NCBI RefSeq assembly: GCF_003072485.1
Contig: NZ_CP025989.1
Coordinates: 390,001-422,000 of the forward strand
Direction of reading: 5' to 3'
Length of the DNA stretch: 32,000 nt
Source: Candidatus Fokinia solitaria
GTDB taxonomy: Bacteria > Pseudomonadota > Alphaproteobacteria > Rickettsiales > Midichloriaceae
The notes beneath the pieces were generated by a model. The model made no database searches, was not told the DNA's origin, and worked only from the letters and a program-made list of their open reading frames with translations. Below are positions 1 to 19,172 of this stretch, in pieces. The first letter of the stretch is position 1. Each line of letters begins with the position of its first letter. The position numbers were made by a program, and so were the translations under genes.

Positions 1-161
1 GCTAACTCCTTCCGAGATATATCTCCGCTTTTATGAAGAAGAAGTTCTAATACCTCAGATGAGATAGGTAGAATTGTTTTACAGCATCTGTGAACAATTC
101 CATGTACCGTCTCATATTCAGATGCGTTCTTCTTGTATTTAGTATTATCTTTATCTATCAT
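1..161 (-). CDS. Partial CDS (first 53 codons; continues past the left edge), paralogue of the 172-aa protein at 2453..2971
   Basis: Minus-strand translation from ATG 161..159 is open to the window edge: MIDKDNTKYKKNASEYETVHGIVHRCCKTILPISSEVLELLLHKSGDISRKEL... It aligns with the N-terminus of the 2453..2971 product (MLNKNNTK...REVIHEYCEIILPLAPDILKFFLHKNGNVPRMEL). Too short in-window to appear in the ORF track. Confidence 0.55.
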   Translation of the reverse strand, partial: MIDKDNTKYKKNASEYETVHGIVHRCCKTILPISSEVLELLLHKSGDISRKEL

Positions 162-235
162 TATAAATATCAATCTAATATGTTGTTATATAGTATATGC
201 AAGGAAAAAATAATAGTCAATTGATGGAAGTATTG
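130..235. repeat. Copy A of a ~100-bp duplicated segment (5' end of small minus-strand gene + 35-bp divergent spacer + first codons of the large plus-strand gene)
   Basis: By-eye alignment with 2940..3035: ttagtattat(c/t)tttat...cattat...tatatagtatatgc(ttc)aaggaaa..taat(a/g)(g/a)tcaa. Boundaries approximate. Confidence 0.7.
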
Positions 236-2227
236 CTCAAGGATGAAGCTGCTTTTCGGCAGTTAGCTGAGCAGAATGATGACAATCTTGCAGGAATAGC
301 AGGAAAATTCGTATACCAGCTAGATTATGAAGCGTATCATTCTTTGTTCTATCGTAGCCTTGTGCACTTTATATCGCATAATGAGACACTTAAGCACTAT
401 CGAGATATGGTATTGGAGGCGCAGAAGTATGGACTACCAATCGAGACAGTAGAGAGATTAAAAGCATCACATGAGGAAAAAAAAGGAGAATTCATAAAGC
501 GATATAATGATCAATTAAACTACATCAGAGAAAAAGAAGTAAGTAATGTATTAAAGGAGAATAGAACACTTCTCGAAATAGCGCTAAAAGAAAATAATGA
601 AGATAAAGATTTTTTAAAAGCGCTATTTACAGCATTATCAGCTAATAACCGCCCTCATGTTATTACTCTTGCTCCTCTCAGAATGAATATTCGTGGAGGT
701 TTTTATAACTTACGAAATGATTCGATTACTCTATTTCAGGATGATTCGCGATATAGATCTCATTATACAGTGTCTACCCTTGTGCATGAACTTATGCATA
801 GATTCGCTTACTGTTACAATGGGGCAGAATTGGTAATAAAGAGAGAGAAAATGGTTGAAGACTTTTTAAACCAATTTCCACCTTCGCTTCATTTTGTGAT
901 ACTTAAGAAAATGGCGGATGACTTTGCAATATTGACTGATAAGATGATATCTCAACATTATGTTGATAAAGTAGAAGAACAGGATAACTTGAAAGATAGA
1001 AAAGAGCATTTTATTGGGCACATTATGGGCGAGGTAGCGACGAGAGTATATGACTTAGTTCGAGACAGAGCTCAAGGTATAGATCAGACTGGGTTTCCTG
1101 TTACAGTAGAGGTAAGAAAGTTCTTTCAAGAGGTAGTGAAGAGCGAAATATCAGCATTTGAGAAGTATGGTATAACAAAAGATTGGCAGGATCAAATGAA
1201 GAGTTTTGCGGCTCGAGGAGCGGCGATGGATGCCTCTATTACTGCTATAATAACTTCTAGTCAATATTGTACAATAAATGAGGCTGCTTTGATGCAAATG
1301 TTAGTGGATATCGATCAATACGGCAGCCAGATACACAAAAAAGATCCGAAATTCACAATTATGCTCGAGTTAGAGCACAATGCTGTAAAAGGGATACTCT
1401 CTATAAAAAAGAAAGAATTTCAGGAAAATATTAACAATTATGAGCAACTGATAAATTTGTCGCAAGGAATAAGAAAGCTTGAAAAAGCAGTATCTAAAAT
1501 GATTTGTGCAAAAGAAGTAGGGAATTTTCGGAACTTAAAGGAGAAAATCGACAAAAGTATAATGACTGCTTTCGAAAAATTTTCTGATGAAAAAAATGAT
1601 TTTGTAGCTCTGATAGATCTTTTAGGAGGAATAAAGAGCTTTGCAACGATCTCTCAAGATGATAGTCTGAAGAAAACACTCAACTCTTATGAGAGAAAAG
1701 TAACGACAAAGCTTCAAGGTAATAGTAACATTCCACAATTTCTTGGCGCAGATATAAAAGCGTATATTGAAAAAATAACACAGTCTTTGGAAAAAATGAA
1801 TGCTAAGGAAGATTTGGAAAAAGCGGCAAAAGATCTGGAAGACAGGTACGTAAAGTGTTCGCACAGACTTGCTACACTTCTTTCGTGCAACAGCGAAATG
1901 TTTACTGACATAATAATGGAAGTGCAAGATAAAAGTCGTAATGCGTGCTATAATCTATTAGGCGAGATAGAGCGTAAAAAGAATACGTTTGTAGTACAGC
2001 AACAGCAATTCAATGAAGAGCAGCAACAGTCACCTCGGTCGCAACAACAGCAGACGCAGCAACAGCAGCAGATAGAGAGCGTACCAGAGGAAGTGCTATA
2101 CCGAGTAGCAAATAGCTTCAGCACAATCCAACAAGCAGCAACAGAAGGAGCAATCACAACAGCCGCAGGGAGTCAGAAAGTAGTGCAAAATGACAGCAAC
2201 AAGAGTCCAGGAGGAAGGCGCCAATAG
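197..2227 (+). CDS. Hypothetical 676-aa protein with HExxH zincin-like motif, K/E-rich helical body, poly-Q tract and basic C-terminus (candidate secreted metalloprotease-like effector)
   Basis: Long uninterrupted ORF from ATG. STLVHELMHRF at aa 193-203 (HELMH = nt 785..799). Q-tract at aa 601-625. Ends in GGRRQ. No family recognised beyond the motif. Confidence 0.8.
   Translation: MQGKNNSQLMEVLLKDEAAFRQLAEQNDDNLAGIAGKFVYQLDYEAYHSLFYRSLVHFISHNETLKHYRDMVLEAQKYGLPIETVERLKASHEEKKGEFIKRYNDQLNYIREKEVSNVLKENRTLLEIALKENNEDKDFLKALFTALSANNRPHVITLAPLRMNIRGGFYNLRNDSITLFQDDSRYRSHYTVSTLVHELMHRFAYCYNGAELVIKREKMVEDFLNQFPPSLHFVILKKMADDFAILTDKMISQHYVDKVEEQDNLKDRKEHFIGHIMGEVATRVYDLVRDRAQGIDQTGFPVTVEVRKFFQEVVKSEISAFEKYGITKDWQDQMKSFAARGAAMDASITAIITSSQYCTINEAALMQMLVDIDQYGSQIHKKDPKFTIMLELEHNAVKGILSIKKKEFQENINNYEQLINLSQGIRKLEKAVSKMICAKEVGNFRNLKEKIDKSIMTAFEKFSDEKNDFVALIDLLGGIKSFATISQDDSLKKTLNSYERKVTTKLQGNSNIPQFLGADIKAYIEKITQSLEKMNAKEDLEKAAKDLEDRYVKCSHRLATLLSCNSEMFTDIIMEVQDKSRNACYNLLGEIERKKNTFVVQQQQFNEEQQQSPRSQQQQTQQQQQIESVPEEVLYRVANSFSTIQQAATEGAITTAAGSQKVVQNDSNKSPGGRRQ
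1997..2071 (+). repeat. Imperfect CAG/CAA trinucleotide tract encoding QQQQFNEEQQQSPRSQQQQTQQQQQ
   Basis: Read directly: cagcaacagcaa...cagcaacag...caacaacagcag..cagcaacagcagcag, in frame in the 197..2227 ORF. Confidence 0.85.
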
Positions 2228-2388
2228 ATCGTTTTGAACATGATGATCTTTTCACTTTCGTATTTACGATGATTGAAAATATCAACATCCCTACCCGTTT
2301 TTGTATCGCACTTATGAGATTCGAAGATGAAAGAAAAAAGAAAGGAAGAAGGAGCGAAATGAGATTTTCGCATACCTCTGTTACAAAT

Positions 2389-2410
2389 GGAGAGAGTTGA
2401 TACTCTCTCC
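2389..2410. terminator. Perfect 8-bp inverted repeat (GGAGAGAG-ttgata-CTCTCTCC) between convergent genes; possible bidirectional terminator
   Basis: Located between the stop of 197..2227 (+) and the stop of 2453..2971 (-). There is no clear T-run on the plus side and only a weak one (atttgt) on the minus side. Confidence 0.3.
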
Positions 2411-2452
2411 AAGAGCATCACAATACTTTGTACGTGATACTACGATGAAAGC

Positions 2453-2971
2453 TTAGTCAATACTATCAGAATCGGAGTAATGCATCGCACTGTTATCATG
2501 AATTTCGCTATGTGGAGCCGCGCACTGACTTTGTTCAGGACTTGGTGCAGCAACTTGCTGTTGTTGTAGATGATTCGATGTAACATGATGTGGAGTTGCT
2601 TGATTCTGCAGCATCATCTGCGCTTCCTCCATGAAAATTGGCACCGCTATAGAACGTATTGCATCATGCACATGTCGATTGAATAGCATATAATCAGGCA
2701 GATATGGTGCTTCACCAACAAGAGTATGTCGTAACTTCTCAACAACTCTATCTAAGTCGCGAGAAGAAGTGAGGGTAGGAAATTTTTTTATTAACTCCAT
2801 TCGAGGTACATTTCCATTCTTGTGGAGGAAGAATTTTAATATATCAGGAGCAAGAGGTAAAATTATCTCGCAATATTCGTGAATAACTTCTCGCGTTATA
2901 TCGCTATTGAAGAAATCTTCATTGCTTTTGAATTTATCTTCATTGCTTTTAGTATTATTTTTATTTAACAT
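2453..2971 (-). CDS. Hypothetical 172-aa protein: winged-helix-like N-terminal half, Q-run plus acidic/Ser C-terminal tail
   Basis: ATG-initiated ORF. It has a paralogue at 1..161. Segment ILKFFLHKNGNVPRMELIKKF...RDLDRVVEKL resembles a wHTH by pattern only. Tail is HLQQQQVAAPSPEQSQ...YSDSDSID. Confidence 0.75.
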   Translation of the reverse strand: MLNKNNTKSNEDKFKSNEDFFNSDITREVIHEYCEIILPLAPDILKFFLHKNGNVPRMELIKKFPTLTSSRDLDRVVEKLRHTLVGEAPYLPDYMLFNRHVHDAIRSIAVPIFMEEAQMMLQNQATPHHVTSNHLQQQQVAAPSPEQSQCAAPHSEIHDNSAMHYSDSDSID

Positions 2972-3035
2972 TATTAGTATAAATTAATGTATATTTATAT
3001 AGTATATGCTTCAAGGAAATAATGATCAATGAGTG
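2940..3035. repeat. Copy B of the duplicated divergent-spacer segment
   Basis: See copy A. The spacer between ATG(2971, minus) and ATG(3006, plus) is 34 bp, versus 35 bp in copy A. Confidence 0.7.
3006..3032 (+). pseudogene. 8-codon remnant homologous to the start of the 676-aa gene (MLQGNNDQ-stop versus MQGKNNSQLM...)
   Basis: atgcttcaaggaaataatgatcaatga aligns with atgcaaggaaaaaataatagtcaattgatg at 197. No further similarity seen before greA. Confidence 0.5.
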
Positions 3036-3287
3036 TCAAGAAAAAGAGAAAAAGGTATTAGTGCAATACATATAATCCGCTGTTTTGATAACGAATTACT
3101 AGATACATGGCAAGAAGTGAGATTTACCGCTGATAATTGTAGAATCAATGATTTAAAGCATTTATGCAGCGAAAACTCTTTCTAATGCGCAAAGCAATAG
3201 TCTTAATAATATGATAAAATGTTGATTATATAACCTTTAAGTTATAACATCATAAGCTACGTGTGTTTATAGATTCATGCTTTGTAT

Positions 3288-3755
3288 ATGCAAAGGTTCT
3301 TGATTACGCAAAAAGGTTATAATGCTTTAAAAGAAGAGCTTCATCGTCTTAAGACAATAGATAGAGTATCTATAGTTGCGGCAATTTCAGAAGCAAGATC
3401 TCATGGCGATCTTTCTGAAAATGCGGAATATCACGCCGCTATTGAAAAGCAGAGTATGATAGAAAGTAAGATAGCTGATCTAGAAAGTAAGTTTAGTCGC
3501 GCTGAAGTTATAATACCTAACACTGAGACTGACGTTATCAGATTTGGTGCTACAGTGGAGCTTGAAAGCGAAGATACACCTAAGGTAAAGATGAGATATA
3601 CTATTGCTGGAAATTATGAAGCGGATCCGGAAAAAGGAGTAATATCCGCCTACTCACCTGTAGGTAGATCCATGATAGGTAGAGTAGTTGGAGATGATAT
3701 TATGATAAATGAGCGCGTATATATTGTGACTAGTGTATTATATATTACGGATTAA
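3288..3755 (+). CDS. greA: Transcription elongation factor GreA
   Basis: Size (~155 aa) and motifs: ITQKGYNALKEELHRLK, AISEARSHGDLSENAEYHAA, C-terminal SPVGRSMIGRVVGDD. The track start at 3282 is TTG. ATG at 3288 gives the usual N-terminus. Confidence 0.9.
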   Translation: MQRFLITQKGYNALKEELHRLKTIDRVSIVAAISEARSHGDLSENAEYHAAIEKQSMIESKIADLESKFSRAEVIIPNTETDVIRFGATVELESEDTPKVKMRYTIAGNYEADPEKGVISAYSPVGRSMIGRVVGDDIMINERVYIVTSVLYITD

Positions 3756-6161
3756 TTGCGTTGACTTAGTATCTGATTTTTTCAGTATAATTCTGCTAGG
3801 TTGTGCCGCTATCTGCTGCTGTCTCACGCGGAATTTATACATGCTTCTTATCTTGTTATAAGTAAGAGTAGCGATTGCGGCGGTAGCAACACCAGCAGCA
3901 GCTATTTTAGTAAATGTAGCGACAGCAACTAGTACAGCAGAAGCAGCAGCAGCTTTTACGGCAATTTTTCGTGATGCGCGATCGAAGATCTTTTCAGGAT
4001 TTTCTTCTCCTTCCAACAATTTATCGTACATTTTAGTCTTTGCAGATTTCTCTGCTACTTCTTTGCTAACTGCTGTGATAGCAAGTAAGCTTCCTGTGAG
4101 TTCGGTATTACCTCCTAATGCCTTTTGCGCAAGGGATGATACTGCGCAGTACAATGCGAGTTTTGCTGTATAATGTCCGATATTGTTGGCTACTTCATTA
4201 GCTACAGCGGCAACAATAATTGCTTTTTCTTTGTCTCCTATTTCTTTAGAATTGTATCTCGCTTGGTATGCTTTTACCGCAAGTCCTGCAAGTATAGCTG
4301 TAGCTTTTCCTAATGTACCGATGCCAATTTTATTAGATGTTTCATGAATTACCCCTACTGTTGCGGCAGCATCTAATGTTTGAGAAGTTTTTTTAGCATA
4401 ATCATATAATTTCACTAACTTCTTCCTTTTGTCTAAATCCTTATATTCTGAAATAATGCCTTTGTCCTTGATTGCACTCTTGAGTCTTTTGTGCAATTTA
4501 AGCGCGAGAGTATCTTGCTTTTTGAGCGATACAGTAGCCTTTTTATCGATAGTAGGAGCTAGAATCCCCATTCCCATATCGGTACTACCGATCTCTATCT
4601 TACTATCTATTCTGTTACTTTTATCTATGTTTACAAGTTGCATATTAGAATCTTGTGCTTGAAAAGCGCCAAAGGTACATTTTTGAAATTTTCCACACTG
4701 CATCTTAGTATCTTTGATCTGAATACTATCGGCCTTTACAGATATAAATGAAGAACTTGGTACAAGCGAGTCTAAGAATGTTATGTTTTTTGCCTTCACC
4801 TTATTGAATTTCATAGGAAGTGCAGAGTTCTTGAACTCAATTTTATTACCAATACAATTTGTAAACCGTAACCGTCCGCCCTCTTCCGGTAATTGACTGA
4901 AAAGCTCTTCTGTAAGCGAATCAACCTTTTCTTTTAGAAATGGCTTTTCTTGTGCATCCAAGAAAACATCATCACTTTGTACACTGAGAAATATGTCGCC
5001 ATCCTTATTTATTGTCGCGTCTTCAATAGATGCGCTATGCTCAATTTTCCTTGTGATATCGTCTTTTATGCATTTCTTTGCTTCATGATCAATTGTATTT
5101 CTACAATCGATAAACTTTACAGCGCCGAATTTCTTCGTCACTTCAATATCATTTAAGAATATACAGTTTTCAAATACTGTTTCTTTATTATTTTCTGCAT
5201 CAGCGCCAAGTATATGCGTATTTAGAAATATGCAATTCTTATAAGTTTTTCCCTGTTCTATTTCATCTTGAATTGAATATTGCGTTTTAGGCGCGATATC
5301 TTCTTGTTTCTCTTCTACGTATTGTAATTGCGCTTTCCTTATATCATTTTCAGCAAGCACAAGTTCAGTCTTTGCCGTATTATATGCTTGCATCACGTCT
5401 AATAATCGTTCTGATACTTTATTTGATGTATTAATGCTTTTTATAGTGCTTTGCGCATCAAACAATATTTTCATTTCTTCAGCAGACATATCTTTTTCTA
5501 CGATCTTTTGAAAATGATGAGGATCAGTATTATTCTGTGAATTTGTTATACTCCATAATTCTTCTAGGCATTCTGCGACATTTTTCCTTTTTTCTTCTAC
5601 AGCTTTATGATGTCTTTTTCGTAGATCTTCATCAAAAATCCATTCTGGTGAAGCTTTTTGTTTGGCATCGAATGTTGTAGCAGAGAATAATTCTTCTTTT
5701 GAAATTTTAACCCTTGCTTCTCCTACAATTAGATTTTTCACCCCTTCTCTGAAATTTTTGAACGCTCCTCTAAATCCTTGATTTTGCGCTACTACATTAT
5801 TTTGATTATTTAATTCAGGCAAGGAGGGGAAAGATGCTTTTTCATGAATATTAAAGAGATGATGTTTATCGCTAGATGGTGAATCTATAATTGCGCCGGA
5901 AAAATCAGAATCTGGAAAAGCACAATTGGTAAAGTGAGAATTTCGAAAGCGAGTGCCATCGAATTGACAATTTCTAAATACAGAAGTCGCGCAATGTAGA
6001 TTTTTTATTACACAACCAGAGAAATCTATGTCGCTCAATATTTCCTCTTTTATCTGTCTTCCACCATTAAATTTTTGAAAATCTATCTCTTTCTTACCAC
6101 TTTGAAGCGCCTCTTCTATGAAGAGATGTAACTCGCTTTTTTTGATGTTATTCTTTTGCAT
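3738..6161 (-). CDS. Hypothetical 807-aa protein: N-terminal pentapeptide-repeat block, further degenerate beta-helix-like repeats, Ala-rich hydrophobic/amphipathic C-terminal ~200 aa
   Basis: aa 45-94 read as ten consecutive pentads with F/I/C at the central position (IDFSG CVIKN LHCAT SVFRN CQFDG TRFRN SHFTN CAFPD SDFSG AIIDS; nt 5880..6029). C-terminus contains AILAGLAVKAY, AIIVAAVANEVANNIG, AAAASAVLVAVATFTKIAAAGVATAAIATL. Confidence 0.8.
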   Translation of the reverse strand: MQKNNIKKSELHLFIEEALQSGKKEIDFQKFNGGRQIKEEILSDIDFSGCVIKNLHCATSVFRNCQFDGTRFRNSHFTNCAFPDSDFSGAIIDSPSSDKHHLFNIHEKASFPSLPELNNQNNVVAQNQGFRGAFKNFREGVKNLIVGEARVKISKEELFSATTFDAKQKASPEWIFDEDLRKRHHKAVEEKRKNVAECLEELWSITNSQNNTDPHHFQKIVEKDMSAEEMKILFDAQSTIKSINTSNKVSERLLDVMQAYNTAKTELVLAENDIRKAQLQYVEEKQEDIAPKTQYSIQDEIEQGKTYKNCIFLNTHILGADAENNKETVFENCIFLNDIEVTKKFGAVKFIDCRNTIDHEAKKCIKDDITRKIEHSASIEDATINKDGDIFLSVQSDDVFLDAQEKPFLKEKVDSLTEELFSQLPEEGGRLRFTNCIGNKIEFKNSALPMKFNKVKAKNITFLDSLVPSSSFISVKADSIQIKDTKMQCGKFQKCTFGAFQAQDSNMQLVNIDKSNRIDSKIEIGSTDMGMGILAPTIDKKATVSLKKQDTLALKLHKRLKSAIKDKGIISEYKDLDKRKKLVKLYDYAKKTSQTLDAAATVGVIHETSNKIGIGTLGKATAILAGLAVKAYQARYNSKEIGDKEKAIIVAAVANEVANNIGHYTAKLALYCAVSSLAQKALGGNTELTGSLLAITAVSKEVAEKSAKTKMYDKLLEGEENPEKIFDRASRKIAVKAAAASAVLVAVATFTKIAAAGVATAAIATLTYNKIRSMYKFRVRQQQIAAQPSRIILKKSDTKSTQLIRNI

Positions 6162-6601: not shown

Positions 6602-7078
6602 TTACCGCATGTTTAATCTACTACGAGCAAATTCTTCTGTTTCCGGTGTGTCATCCAATACCCAACCACTTGTGAGTAACCTCGTAATGTGTTGCTTGTT
6701 ATATATGAATGATAGAATGAAATTAGGAGCAAAAAAGCCGCTAATAAAGTATAGTAGAACTATACTAAGCTTCTCTCCTCGAATTAGAGGTACCCAGAAA
6801 GAGAAGTAAAAGTACGTCCAGCACCAGCCTAATTGAGCAGTTTTTCGAATACCGCTATCCTTATGTCTGACAACGACTGGCCTTTGCTTGAAGACGAAGA
6901 CACCGAGTACTAAAGGAAGCAATGAAAACAGAATGAGAGTGCCACTAGATTCATGACGAAGAGGGTAAAGAAGCTCTTTGATGAGAGTATTAGGAAGTAG
7001 CTGATCGAAAAGAAAAAAAGGAATTAATCCTGGTGAATAAAGAAAGAAGCAGAGCAAGCGGCAGAATTCGAAAAACAT
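6602..7078 (-). CDS. Small integral membrane protein (possibly DUF2628-like)
   Basis: 158-aa ATG ORF with several hydrophobic segments. GWCWTYFYFSFWVPLIRGEK...LLYFISGFF resembles the W-x-W/FxGPxW-LYR pattern of DUF2628-type proteins, from memory only. Confidence 0.55.
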   Translation of the reverse strand: MFFEFCRLLCFFLYSPGLIPFFLFDQLLPNTLIKELLYPLRHESSGTLILFSLLPLVLGVFVFKQRPVVVRHKDSGIRKTAQLGWCWTYFYFSFWVPLIRGEKLSIVLLYFISGFFAPNFILSFIYNKQHITRLLTSGWVLDDTPETEEFARSRLNMR

Positions 7079-11889: not shown

Positions 11890-11966
<77 letters not shown>

Positions 11967-11996
11967 TACTCTTTATTATTTGTATGGACGGTGTTT

Positions 11997-12629
11997 ATGC
12001 AAAAATGTCTTCTTTTTTCATTTCACGGATACGGCGCGAATGGCGCTAACATGAGAAGTGTTGTTACTTCGTTTATGTATGGCCTATCTGATGTAGATAC
12101 GATTTGTCCGGATGGTATTGCGCCATTTGAAGAAGCGCCTTGGAAGCGTGATGCGCGTATGTGGTTTTCATTACGAAATAGCACTCAGAGTATGATGCAA
12201 GAATTAGCATGCAATGCTGCTTCTGATGTGTTAGCATATGTGCTAGAAAAAGCAAAAGAACATAATGTGCGAGAACGCAATATCATTCTTACCGGATTTT
12301 CACAAGGTGCAATGCTAGCATGGGAGTTAGCTAAGATCTTACCGGAAGTACCGCGTGCTGTTATAGGAATGTCCGGTCTGATTGTAACTCCAGCTAGAAC
12401 AATAGATTCAGTTAGAGCGGATAATATAAATAAAAAAACGTCAATTCTTTTTTGTCATGGAAGTTTGGATTCGGTAATACCACTACAACAGATGAAGCAA
12501 TCCTTGAGCGCGCTAGATGAAAAAAATATAAAATATGAATTATTTATAGATAACGGCGCAGAGCATACTGTAACAGATAGTATGATAGAAAAAATTCATG
12601 CTTTCTTAAAAAGAATTATCGTAACATAG
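11997..12629 (+). CDS. Phospholipase/carboxylesterase family alpha/beta hydrolase
   Basis: FHGYGANG (oxyanion region), GFSQGAM (GxSxG nucleophile elbow), CHGSLDSVIP (Asp), GAEHTV (His). The track start at 11931 overlaps the tRNA, so the first in-frame ATG after it (11997) is used. Confidence 0.82.
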   Translation: MQKCLLFSFHGYGANGANMRSVVTSFMYGLSDVDTICPDGIAPFEEAPWKRDARMWFSLRNSTQSMMQELACNAASDVLAYVLEKAKEHNVRERNIILTGFSQGAMLAWELAKILPEVPRAVIGMSGLIVTPARTIDSVRADNINKKTSILFCHGSLDSVIPLQQMKQSLSALDEKNIKYELFIDNGAEHTVTDSMIEKIHAFLKRIIVT

Positions 12630-16098: not shown

Positions 16099-16436
16099 AA
16101 AGAGAGATTGTATTACGCAAAATCATTAAACTTCTTAGCGTTTTATCGCGCAATTATTTGATTATAGAGGAGCTGAAGGAACGGGCTAGGTTGGAGTTGC
16201 TTCCCTGAGCGATATTGAAAAGAGAGATAGTACCTTCGTGTGTGCAGAGAGCGATATCTAATTTAGTAAGTTCTTGTTGTTGCTATAATGATACTTCAGA
16301 TGAAAGAAAAAGAAAAAATAGGTACCGCCCTAGTTTTTTTACACACCTGATGGTACTATGAATATTCAAGATAGAAGTCTCAGTATATTTGACCCTGGAG
16401 ACTTTTATCTTATTTTTAACCTTCATCATTTCTATT

Positions 16437-16952
16437 ATGAAAGAAAAGATAAAGCAAATGCAACTTGCATTCCCCGATTACATAACTGAAAAGGGGATAA
16501 CAAAAGGCATATACAAAGTATATAGAAGAGAAAGTAGAATAGCAAGCTCATTTCCGTGTAAAGACTCAAAATTACCACTTCGCACTAGAGCTATTGTTGA
16601 TAGTGAAGTGAAAACTCTTGAGTGCGTTACTTCTCAAGAAGAGAATAACAACTCTCAGCGAGAAATTGGCGCCTTGCCTAACGATATCAATTTAAAAAAG
16701 GAATTTGTTGATTACAAGATGGAACTAGAAAAGGAATTTGTTGATCACAAGATGGAGCTAGAAAAGAAGTTTGATGATTATAAGATGAAACTAGAAAAGG
16801 AATTTATTGATTATAAGATGAAACTAGAAAAAAAATTTACTGCTAGGGTAGAGGTAAAAAGACCTAGTATTTACGATCTCGACGTTTCTATATTTACTGA
16901 TCTGCCGTTTAACTATAAGGAACGTCAGATGTATTCTCAAGGCAAGAGATGA
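16437..16952 (+). CDS. Hypothetical tandem-repeat protein (four 11-aa KEFVDYKMELE-type repeats)
   Basis: ORF with in-frame 33-bp repeats. The first ATG is at 16437. The track start is TTG at 16389, which would add a hydrophobic N-terminus (TLETFILFLTFIISI). Start unresolved. Confidence 0.65.
   Translation: MKEKIKQMQLAFPDYITEKGITKGIYKVYRRESRIASSFPCKDSKLPLRTRAIVDSEVKTLECVTSQEENNNSQREIGALPNDINLKKEFVDYKMELEKEFVDHKMELEKKFDDYKMKLEKEFIDYKMKLEKKFTARVEVKRPSIYDLDVSIFTDLPFNYKERQMYSQGKR
16698..16838 (+). repeat. 33-bp tandem repeat, 4.3 copies
   Basis: Units at 16698-16730, 16731-16763, 16764-16796 and 16797-16829, plus a partial unit to 16838: aaggaatttgttgattacaagatggaactagaa and variants. Confidence 0.92.
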
Positions 16953-18785: not shown

Positions 18786-19172
18786 TTAGCTTCGAGATCT
18801 ATGCTTATCCTTCATACGATTATTTTTCCGTAACATTAAAAATGTCACCCAAAATCCTTCTTTATTCTTATGCATGAGTGCACTTATATACATTTTAGAA
18901 ATATTACGTTTTATAATTAGATTCGTCCAAAATCCGTGAGGCTTTACAATGCCGACGATCTCCTTTTCATCATATTCGCGATCATCGTATATGATTTTTC
19001 CATCTTTCATTTTTTTAAGTGTGACATGTTGTTTTGTTTTACTCGATTCAGCAAAAATGTCTTCCTCATATGCTGCTGTTTGTTTTGCATTATATATAGA
19101 CTTTCTCAATACGTAGAATAGCGTTGATATTACTACTGCAAAGACAATCACAAGCACCGATATATGTAGCAA
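18786..19172 (-). CDS. Hypothetical N-terminally membrane-anchored 128-aa basic protein
   Basis: Hydrophobic ISVLVIVFAVVISTLFYVL at the start, then K/E-rich, with two GFW(T/V)..L(I/M)..(K/R)(R/K)N segments. Only a TTG start (19172) is available and no family is recognised. Confidence 0.5.
   Translation of the reverse strand: MLHISVLVIVFAVVISTLFYVLRKSIYNAKQTAAYEEDIFAESSKTKQHVTLKKMKDGKIIYDDREYDEKEIVGIVKPHGFWTNLIIKRNISKMYISALMHKNKEGFWVTFLMLRKNNRMKDKHRSRS

Follow-up and report, generated by a model that had tools for sequence, protein, structure and literature searches.

The first three kilobases of the window analysed here, a stretch of 32,000 nucleotides from the chromosome of Candidatus Fokinia solitaria (NZ_CP025989.1, positions 390,001 to 422,000), hold the right end of a tandem array of divergent gene pairs that is specific to this species. 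The array continues to the left of the window and comprises at least three copies of a small gene, S, and at least three of a large gene, L, so that two linked families account for six 'hypothetical proteins'. In its rightmost copy, a complete S gene faces only the first eight codons of an L gene. We propose, with a probability of roughly 0.55, that this array of cassettes arose by duplication, gene conversion and decay, that a deletion removed its terminal L gene as far as the promoter of the adjacent S gene, and that the L proteins are zincin-like, probably exported and directed at the host, with the S proteins serving as dedicated regulators or chaperones. This account and the alternatives weighed below are not all mutually exclusive. 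Ca. F. solitaria belongs to the Midichloriaceae (Rickettsiales) and lives as an endosymbiont in the cytoplasm of Paramecium; its chromosome of 837,348 bp, which carries two insertion sequence (IS) elements, was the smallest Rickettsiales genome reported at the time of publication (PMC5905368). The S and L proteins of the locus are 100% identical to hypothetical proteins of this organism.

The duplication is evident at the DNA level. Positions 1-221 of the window are homologous to positions 2811-3030: the local alignment of 1-260 with 2811-3070 reaches a score of 83, compared with 21.4±3.0 (maximum 34) for shuffled sequences and 20.1±3.0 (maximum 32) for other 260-mers of the window, and even the spacer and the part downstream of it, taken without S, score 45 against 15.6±2.6 (maximum 28). 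A first-pass annotation, made from the sequence alone, had described a duplicated unit of small gene, spacer and large-gene start with spacers of 35 and 34 bp, and this description stands, the similarity being clearly above that of shuffled AT-rich sequence. Conservation is strongest in a core of about 95 bp (127-221 and 2937-3030, ~80% identity), which extends from codon 11 of S across the spacer to codon 8 of L. Its invariant 15-mer, TTATATAGTATATGC, is found at 186 and 2995 and nowhere else in the 32 kb, and contains a short ATATA-G-TATAT dyad. Deeper into S, the DNA similarity of the two copies drops, in agreement with their protein sequences, whose N-termini are 33% identical in BLASTP (E=5e-11). 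The partial minus-strand frame at the left edge of the window, rightly taken for a paralog of the 172-residue S product, translates as MIDKDNTKYKK...SRKEL and is 100% identical to residues 1-53 of Fsol_00367 (166 residues); the 172-residue product itself, which begins with MLNKNNTK, is Fsol_00370.

These two copies, which had been described as a simple pair, are part of a larger family. In a database of 5.8 billion clusters, the S family has three members of 161-172 residues, Fsol_00364, Fsol_00367 and Fsol_00370. The L family likewise has three: Fsol_00368, the L protein of the window, with 676 residues; Fsol_00366 with 869 residues; and Fsol_00362, which comprises 250 or 257 residues depending on the annotation and is a 5'-truncated copy, since its start falls in the middle of the domain shared by all three. 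An exhaustive phmmer search with residues 1-600 of the window L protein against 1.84 billion representative sequences yielded no further proteins except two of the same genome: Fsol_00366 (E=1.5e-29, 38% identity over residues 134-328 of the window L protein) and Fsol_00362 (E=2.3e-8). The search for additional copies that the first-pass annotation had suggested thus added one S and two L genes, and none came to light in the rest of the window. Ordered by locus tags and accessions, which run from AWD33160 to AWD33168 for Fsol_00362 to Fsol_00370, the array reads Fsol_00362 (L fragment), 00363, 00364 (S), 00365, 00366 (L), 00367 (S), 00368 (L), 00369 (an open reading frame (ORF) of 43 codons), 00370 (S), the eight-codon stub and greA. 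The layout of Fsol_00362 to Fsol_00366 is taken from this numbering, and their orientation and spacing are presumed. To the right of the array, all genes have housekeeping functions: greA, rpsE, proS, ctpA, yebC, secA, a Mur ligase gene, pnp and the gene for a class A penicillin-binding protein.

The copies are also mosaics. Fsol_00367 and Fsol_00370 agree in 35 of 96 residues (36%) in their N-terminal halves, whereas the C-terminal 69 residues are identical without exception (69/69; Fisher p=2e-20), in a stretch that runs from AIRSIAVPIFMEEAQMML to the C-terminus. In this same part, Fsol_00364 is 58% identical to both. Given the contrast between the two halves, we conclude that a recent gene-conversion or recombination tract joins the 3' halves of the S genes that flank the window L gene. 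The array as a whole would thus have been shaped by tandem duplication, by gene conversion between the copies and by decay.

The stub of the rightmost copy is best understood in comparison with Fsol_00366. While the window L protein begins with MQGKNNSQLM, the N-terminus of Fsol_00366, MLQGNNDQLIFQ (MLQGNNDQL), matches the stub in eight of eight residues, and the stub is therefore a true L remnant, as the first-pass annotation had assumed from the reading MLQGNNDQ-stop at ATG 3006. With respect to the window L gene, it shows two 3-nt indels that compensate for each other, so that neither the frame nor the total length is altered. Beyond codon 8, the trail ends: the region downstream of the window L gene has no counterpart here, and positions 3033-3281, up to greA, resemble no L sequence at the DNA or protein level (blastn, blastx), again as first described. 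The same searches revealed no remnants after the stub or between the window L gene and Fsol_00370, apart from the annotated 43-residue ORF.

Why just these eight codons should have been kept can be explained by the tight spacing of the two genes. A sigma70-type promoter takes up about 35 bp ahead of the transcription start. As the spacer is only 35 bp long, the S promoter must reach into L. Accordingly placed candidate sites are found on the minus strand at equal relative positions in both copies, with a -10 hexamer that overlaps the L start codon and a -35 hexamer that coincides with L codons 7-8 (Table 1), and the DNA homology of the copies stops 1 nt past this -35 hexamer. Judging from their match to the consensus and their position, these sites may function as promoters. 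In the mechanism that we propose, the copy beside greA would once have had an L gene of the Fsol_00366 type, which was then deleted from codon 9 onward. If the S promoter indeed lies within the 5' end of L, with its -10 element at the L start codon and its -35 element in codons 7-8, any deletion that left S expressed would have had to stop at this promoter, and the first eight L codons would have been kept because the spacer is too short for the whole element. This suggests that the stub survives as part of the promoter of Fsol_00370. The back-to-back overlapping promoters that were first envisaged for the spacer are supported: within 35 bp, the two would have to overlap both each other and the 5' end of the partner gene, and the minus-strand site is conserved in both copies. 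No plus-strand promoter passed our consensus scan.

The stub could also have a different history. Copy B may never have been complete if a partial duplication or conversion event placed beside greA no more than S, the spacer and the initial ~25 nt of L, in which case no L gene was lost. The lack of any L trace downstream of the stub, in DNA or protein, and the sharp end of homology at 3030 would be expected under this scenario, and gene conversion is demonstrably active in the array. However, for a tandem duplication to end with an incomplete unit, the array must already have been multi-copy, and the intact ATG with its 8/8 L residues fits a recent deletion equally well. We therefore regard a copy that was partial from the outset as a possible, if unlikely, alternative to the deletion of a complete L gene.

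The presumed geometry also bears on how L itself is transcribed. The motif TATATA ends 4 nt before both ATG 197 and ATG 3006, and neither start is preceded by a Shine-Dalgarno sequence, which had led to the proposal of a leaderless L mRNA that starts at the ATG. We consider this proposal very improbable. Since a Shine-Dalgarno-like motif (AGGA, GGAG or GAGG) is missing from the 20 nt upstream of all 24 gene starts examined, the absence of such a motif at L is uninformative; it points to a genome-wide trait, and translation initiation in Ca. F. solitaria seems to be independent of these motifs. Moreover, the usual distance from the end of a -10 hexamer to the transcription start is about 7 nt, so that, for one that stops 4 nt short of the ATG, a start at the G of this codon or later is predicted, and Fsol_00366 has no nearby alternative methionine, which means that the ATG must lie inside the transcript. 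No plus-strand promoter was detected here in any case. Several other starts in the window directly abut TATACT- or TATAAT-like hexamers, for instance those of the genes at 6602..7078 (-) and 18786..19172 (-).

A further property of the core is a resemblance between the two genes that it connects. In the coding direction of each gene, the initial ~25 nt of S and L are alike (137-161 and 197-221 in copy A, 2947-2971 and 3006-3030 in copy B), with protein starts of the form M-I/L-D/N-K-D/N-N-T-K for S and M-(L)-Q-G-(K)-N-N-S/D-Q for L, and they constitute a 25-nt inverted repeat around the spacer that is 72% complementary. Over the 22 nt that follow the ATG, S and L share 12-15 identical positions, compared with 6.2±2.1 (maximum 13) for other pairs of gene starts, and the core therefore has a loose dyad symmetry. 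One may speculate that it acts as a symmetric, mutually exclusive bidirectional switch, in which each arm serves both as N-terminal coding sequence and as the -35 element of the partner, within a cassette of Fokinia-only, host-targeted zincin-like effectors and cognate winged-helix-like partners whose N-terminal domains were diversified and whose tails were homogenized by gene conversion; we give this elaborate scheme little credence. The core has no RNA fold signal on either strand (z-scores from -1.0 to +0.3), there are no Rfam matches in positions 1-3400, and no tRNA is located near the locus.

Turning to the proteins, the three L paralogs share a domain (residues ~134-330 in the window L protein) with the invariant pattern ITL...R..Y.....VHExxH, followed by N, KM..FL, DF.ILT, GE..T..Y and FF. 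In the low-confidence AlphaFold2 model of this domain, three strands precede the helix that carries the HExxH motif. At the +10 position, Fsol_00366 and Fsol_00362 have a histidine, which results in HExxHx5H. This is the spacing of WLM/SprT-like proteins and of metzincins. In the window L protein, residues 197-207 (785-817) read HELMHRFAYCY, with a cysteine at +9 and a tyrosine in place of the third putative zinc ligand; judged by this replacement, the protein may be a pseudo-enzyme or coordinate its metal differently, and may be catalytically altered. Outside the shared domain, the N-terminal regions vary between paralogs. In Fsol_00366, an FYxSL repeat of 11-13 residues recurs at least 22 times within the N-terminal ~370 residues; the window L protein has one such repeat. 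The C-terminal regions are glutamine-rich in all three proteins, and two of them end with a common tail, NKSPGGR(R/P)Q. In UniProt, Fsol_00366 (P0005) is named 'RGS domain-containing', a designation that we do not follow, as it has no Pfam RGS match at E<=1.

The closest known counterparts of the shared domain are minimal zincins, i.e. the SprT-like/WLM proteins (Wss1, Spartan) and the M76 peptidases (Atp23). Common to them and L is the position of the HExxH motif in a helix after predicted β-strands, and two of three L paralogs have the third histidine at +10, as in WLM/SprT-like proteins. The strand-plus-helix region is also covered by weak profile matches of the window L protein (P0001) to SprT-like (PF10263, 16.2-17.1 bits, E=0.005-0.01) and Peptidase_M76 (PF09768, 16-17 bits, E=0.01); both remain below the gathering thresholds of 25.6 and 25.2 bits, respectively, which leaves P0001 outside the SprT-like family. 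By contrast with these proteins, only one of the three L paralogs matches the profiles at all (Fsol_00366 and Fsol_00362 have no SprT-like match), the L proteins have long helical, glutamine-rich extensions and, in Fsol_00366, the FYxSL repeat array, and no structural match was obtained. No hydrophobic stretch of the kind found in signal peptides or transmembrane segments occurs in either the S or the L family. Together with the conserved tail of L, this is at most an indirect hint of type IV (rvh) secretion, for which a Rickettsiales substrate would carry a C-terminal translocation signal. Secretion systems have been reported for Ca. F. solitaria (PMC5905368). Taken together, the L proteins are most likely zincin-like proteins that are secreted independently of the Sec pathway and directed at the host, where we infer both their proteolytic activity and their secretion from such sequence features.

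For the S proteins, AlphaFold2 predicts with confidence a helical domain (predicted local distance difference test (pLDDT) score of ~90 over residues 21-125), which is followed by a disordered, acidic tail rich in glutamine. The first-pass annotation had called this small gene winged helix-turn-helix (wHTH)-like, and some indications agree with it: the best PDB profile matches, all sub-threshold, align residues 31-90 with the wHTH domain of IclR (1mkm, E=0.1) and the winged helix of RPA32 (E=0.16), HTH_11 matches with E=0.24, also below threshold, and predicted helices lie where the three helices of a wHTH domain would be expected. Likewise, the head-to-head arrangement of S and L with a very short shared control region is reminiscent of small winged-helix regulators (IclR and HTH_11 types) that are encoded divergently from their target. 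Unlike these regulators, S has no significant profile match, no predicted β-wing and no HTH match in Foldseek, its domain is acidic to neutral, and it bears the long acidic tail. The winged-helix-like nature of S is thus a lead rather than a result. As winged helices can bind DNA or protein, S could be a dedicated partner of L in two ways: its winged-helix-like core might regulate the shared divergent promoter, or it might bind the cognate L protein as a chaperone or adaptor. This functional link between S and L is presumed.

Several results weigh against the account that we favor. With regard to regulation, promoter-like sites are barely enriched in the region, with 19 found and 12.8±3.6 expected from shuffled sequences, and gene conversion alone could account for the conservation of the core. 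In the latter case, the ~95 bp would merely have been homogenized and have no regulatory meaning, with the hexamers occurring by chance in AT-rich DNA; the 100%-identical conversion tract elsewhere in the same genes is in line with this, as is the core's lack of an RNA structure signal. This explanation is improbable in our view, as the core is ~80% rather than 100% identical and hence no fresh conversion tract, its indels preserve both the L reading frame and the 17-nt spacing of the hexamers, and an S promoter cannot fit into 35 bp regardless. With regard to the proteins, no Pfam or NCBIfam model scores above threshold for either S or L. Foldseek found no match for the S model in PDB and BFVD (the best PDB hit, at E=2.3, is no HTH protein), and the S proteins are acidic, with isoelectric points (pI) of 4.5-5.7, or 5.2-6.9 for the domain alone. 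For L, the domain model is poor (pLDDT 44) and yielded no match in PDB at E<0.1, and the tyrosine at +10 in Fsol_00368 departs from the putative metal-binding pattern of its paralogs. Finally, the placement of Fsol_00362 to Fsol_00366 rests on locus-tag numbering, according to which Fsol_00365 lies between S (Fsol_00364) and L (Fsol_00366).

Both families appear to be confined to this one genome. No S or L homologs outside Ca. F. solitaria were found among ~15 billion proteins, be it by word-indexed searches or, in the 1.84 billion representatives, by exhaustive phmmer. Searches of genome DNA and scans of metagenome DNA with both family profiles were equally negative, and tblastn with the L domain and S gave no match in 72,556 plasmids and 50,697 phages. 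Relatives are also missing near greA in 80 other bacteria, most of them alphaproteobacteria; this set, whose best member has 54% identity, contains neither Fokinia nor close Midichloriaceae and says nothing about the ancestral state. In the literature searched, we found no paper that describes S or L genes, and the genome paper speaks only generally of 'putative secreted proteins' (PMC5905368). The absence of both families elsewhere is compatible with fast-evolving host-interaction genes, which does not in itself demonstrate such a function.

Given the pairing of a potential protease with a small partner, we also considered a toxin/immunity-type system, in which L would be a harmful protease, S the protein that neutralizes it, and the S gene of copy B an 'orphan immunity' gene kept after the loss of its toxin. 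The strict pairing of each S with one L in the window, the small and acidic nature of S, the retention of an S copy without its L, and the similar degree to which L and the N-terminal domain of S have diverged would all suit such a system. Its components, however, would be encoded divergently rather than co-transcribed, and the searches speak against it: the best match in PADLOC is to SduA with E=0.013, nothing was found in the Pfam toxin/antitoxin families, and more generally nothing significant emerged for S and L from defence-system and phage families (PADLOC, Pfam, PHROG), so that they cannot be counted among toxin-antitoxin systems. There are also no plasmid or phage matches, and the minimal host genome of 837 kb has two IS elements only (PMC5905368). 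We consequently rate the odds of a toxin/immunity pair as very low. For cargo of a mobile element (plasmid, phage or ArdC-like anti-restriction), too, the searches were negative: plasmid and phage homologs are missing, and the only anti-restriction PHROG match, of the window L protein to an ArdC-like family, has E=0.086.

Parallels for the host-directed cassettes that we propose are the lineage-specific paralogous host-interaction arrays of obligate intracellular bacteria, which bear the marks of duplication, gene conversion and pseudogene remnants, such as msp2/p44 in Anaplasma, omp-1/p28 and TRP in Ehrlichia, and cifA-cifB in Wolbachia. With these, the Fokinia array shares tandem paralogs, mosaic identity and truncated copies (Fsol_00362 and the stub), as well as internal repeats (FYxSL, at least 22 copies), low complexity and the restriction to one lineage. 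It differs from them in that there is no sequence relationship, that the unit is a divergent gene pair and not a single gene or operon, and that secretion and host targeting are here presumptions.

Table 1. Features of the array end and its boundary in the window (numbering from the first nucleotide of the window)
Feature	Position	Strand	Remarks
S_A = Fsol_00367 (166 aa), 5' part, codons 1-53	1..161	-	remainder left of the window; 100% protein identity
Conserved ~95-bp core, copy A	127..221		homology to copy B stops at 221
Head-to-head spacer, copy A, 35 bp	162..196
Candidate sigma70-like promoter of S_A	192..220	-	-35 TTGACT (220..215), 17 nt, -10 TATACT (197..192); 10/12 consensus match; inside L codons 1-8
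L_A = Fsol_00368, 676 aa	197..2227	+	ATG 197
Domain common to three L paralogs, residues ~134-330	596..1186	+	predicted three β-strands, then HExxH helix
HELMH motif (H197, E198, H201)	785..799	+	invariant in 3/3 paralogs
Invariant Glu279 in conserved GEV.T..Y	1031..1033	+	possible extra metal or catalytic residue (putative role)
Conserved C-terminal tail NKSPGGRRQ + stop	2198..2227	+	Fsol_00366 ends NKSPGGRPQ; Fsol_00362 ends ...IRQ
Fsol_00369, 43-aa ORF	2269..2400	+	GenBank accession only, without RefSeq WP accession; doubtful gene
S_B = Fsol_00370, 172 aa	2453..2971	-
S_B, 3' part (residues 104-172 + stop)	2453..2662	-	product 100% identical to C-terminal 69 residues of S_A; gene-conversion tract
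Conserved core, copy B	2937..3030
Head-to-head spacer, copy B, 34 bp	2972..3005
Candidate sigma70-like promoter of S_B	3001..3029	-	-35 TTGATC (3029..3024), 17 nt, -10 TATACT (3006..3001); 9/12 consensus match
L-gene stub, ATG + 7 codons + TGA, MLQGNNDQ*	3006..3032	+	identical to first 8 residues of Fsol_00366
greA	3282..3755	+	NF001261, 1.6e-49; first housekeeping gene, right-hand array boundary

Some features in and around the array deserve mention in their own right. The sole terminator-like hairpin of the region (2354-2371, minus strand) lies inside Fsol_00369 on the opposite strand, about 80 nt downstream of the stop codon of Fsol_00370, and consists of GCGAAAATCTCATTTCGC and a T-rich tail. 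Beyond greA, whose 3' end it overlaps convergently by 18 nt (3738-3755), an 807-residue protein (3738..6161, minus strand) combines N-terminal pentapeptide repeats (Pfam E~1e-7) with a long alanine-rich C-terminal part; next to the array, it is possibly another host-interaction protein. Further to the right, an ORF of 187 codons (16389..16952, plus strand) contains five to six tandem 33-nt units at 16660-16857, which encode an 11-residue repeat of approximately LEKEFVDxKME; it has no Pfam match and represents another lineage-specific repeat protein. Lastly, tRNA-Ile (GAT) at 11890-11966 overlaps the 5' end of a listed ORF of 232 codons with a GTG start (11931..12629), whose true start, if it is a gene, therefore lies further downstream.

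In a long-branch endosymbiont, orphan genes that evolve fast and are duplicated in tandem come as no surprise, and the phenomenon as such is of a known kind. New here are the divergent-pair architecture, the stub embedded in a putative promoter and the mosaic S proteins. For annotation, this means that an ORF of eight codons is a genuine gene remnant, and for genome decay, that promoter overlap may dictate which pieces of a lost gene are kept. The array comprises an intact pair, a diverged pair, a truncated L gene and an S gene whose partner is reduced to a stub, and constitutes a compact natural experiment, which could show how host-interaction families arise, diversify by duplication and conversion, and decay. 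That at least three copies of the cassette have been kept in such a small genome argues for selection, probably in the interaction of Ca. F. solitaria with its Paramecium host.

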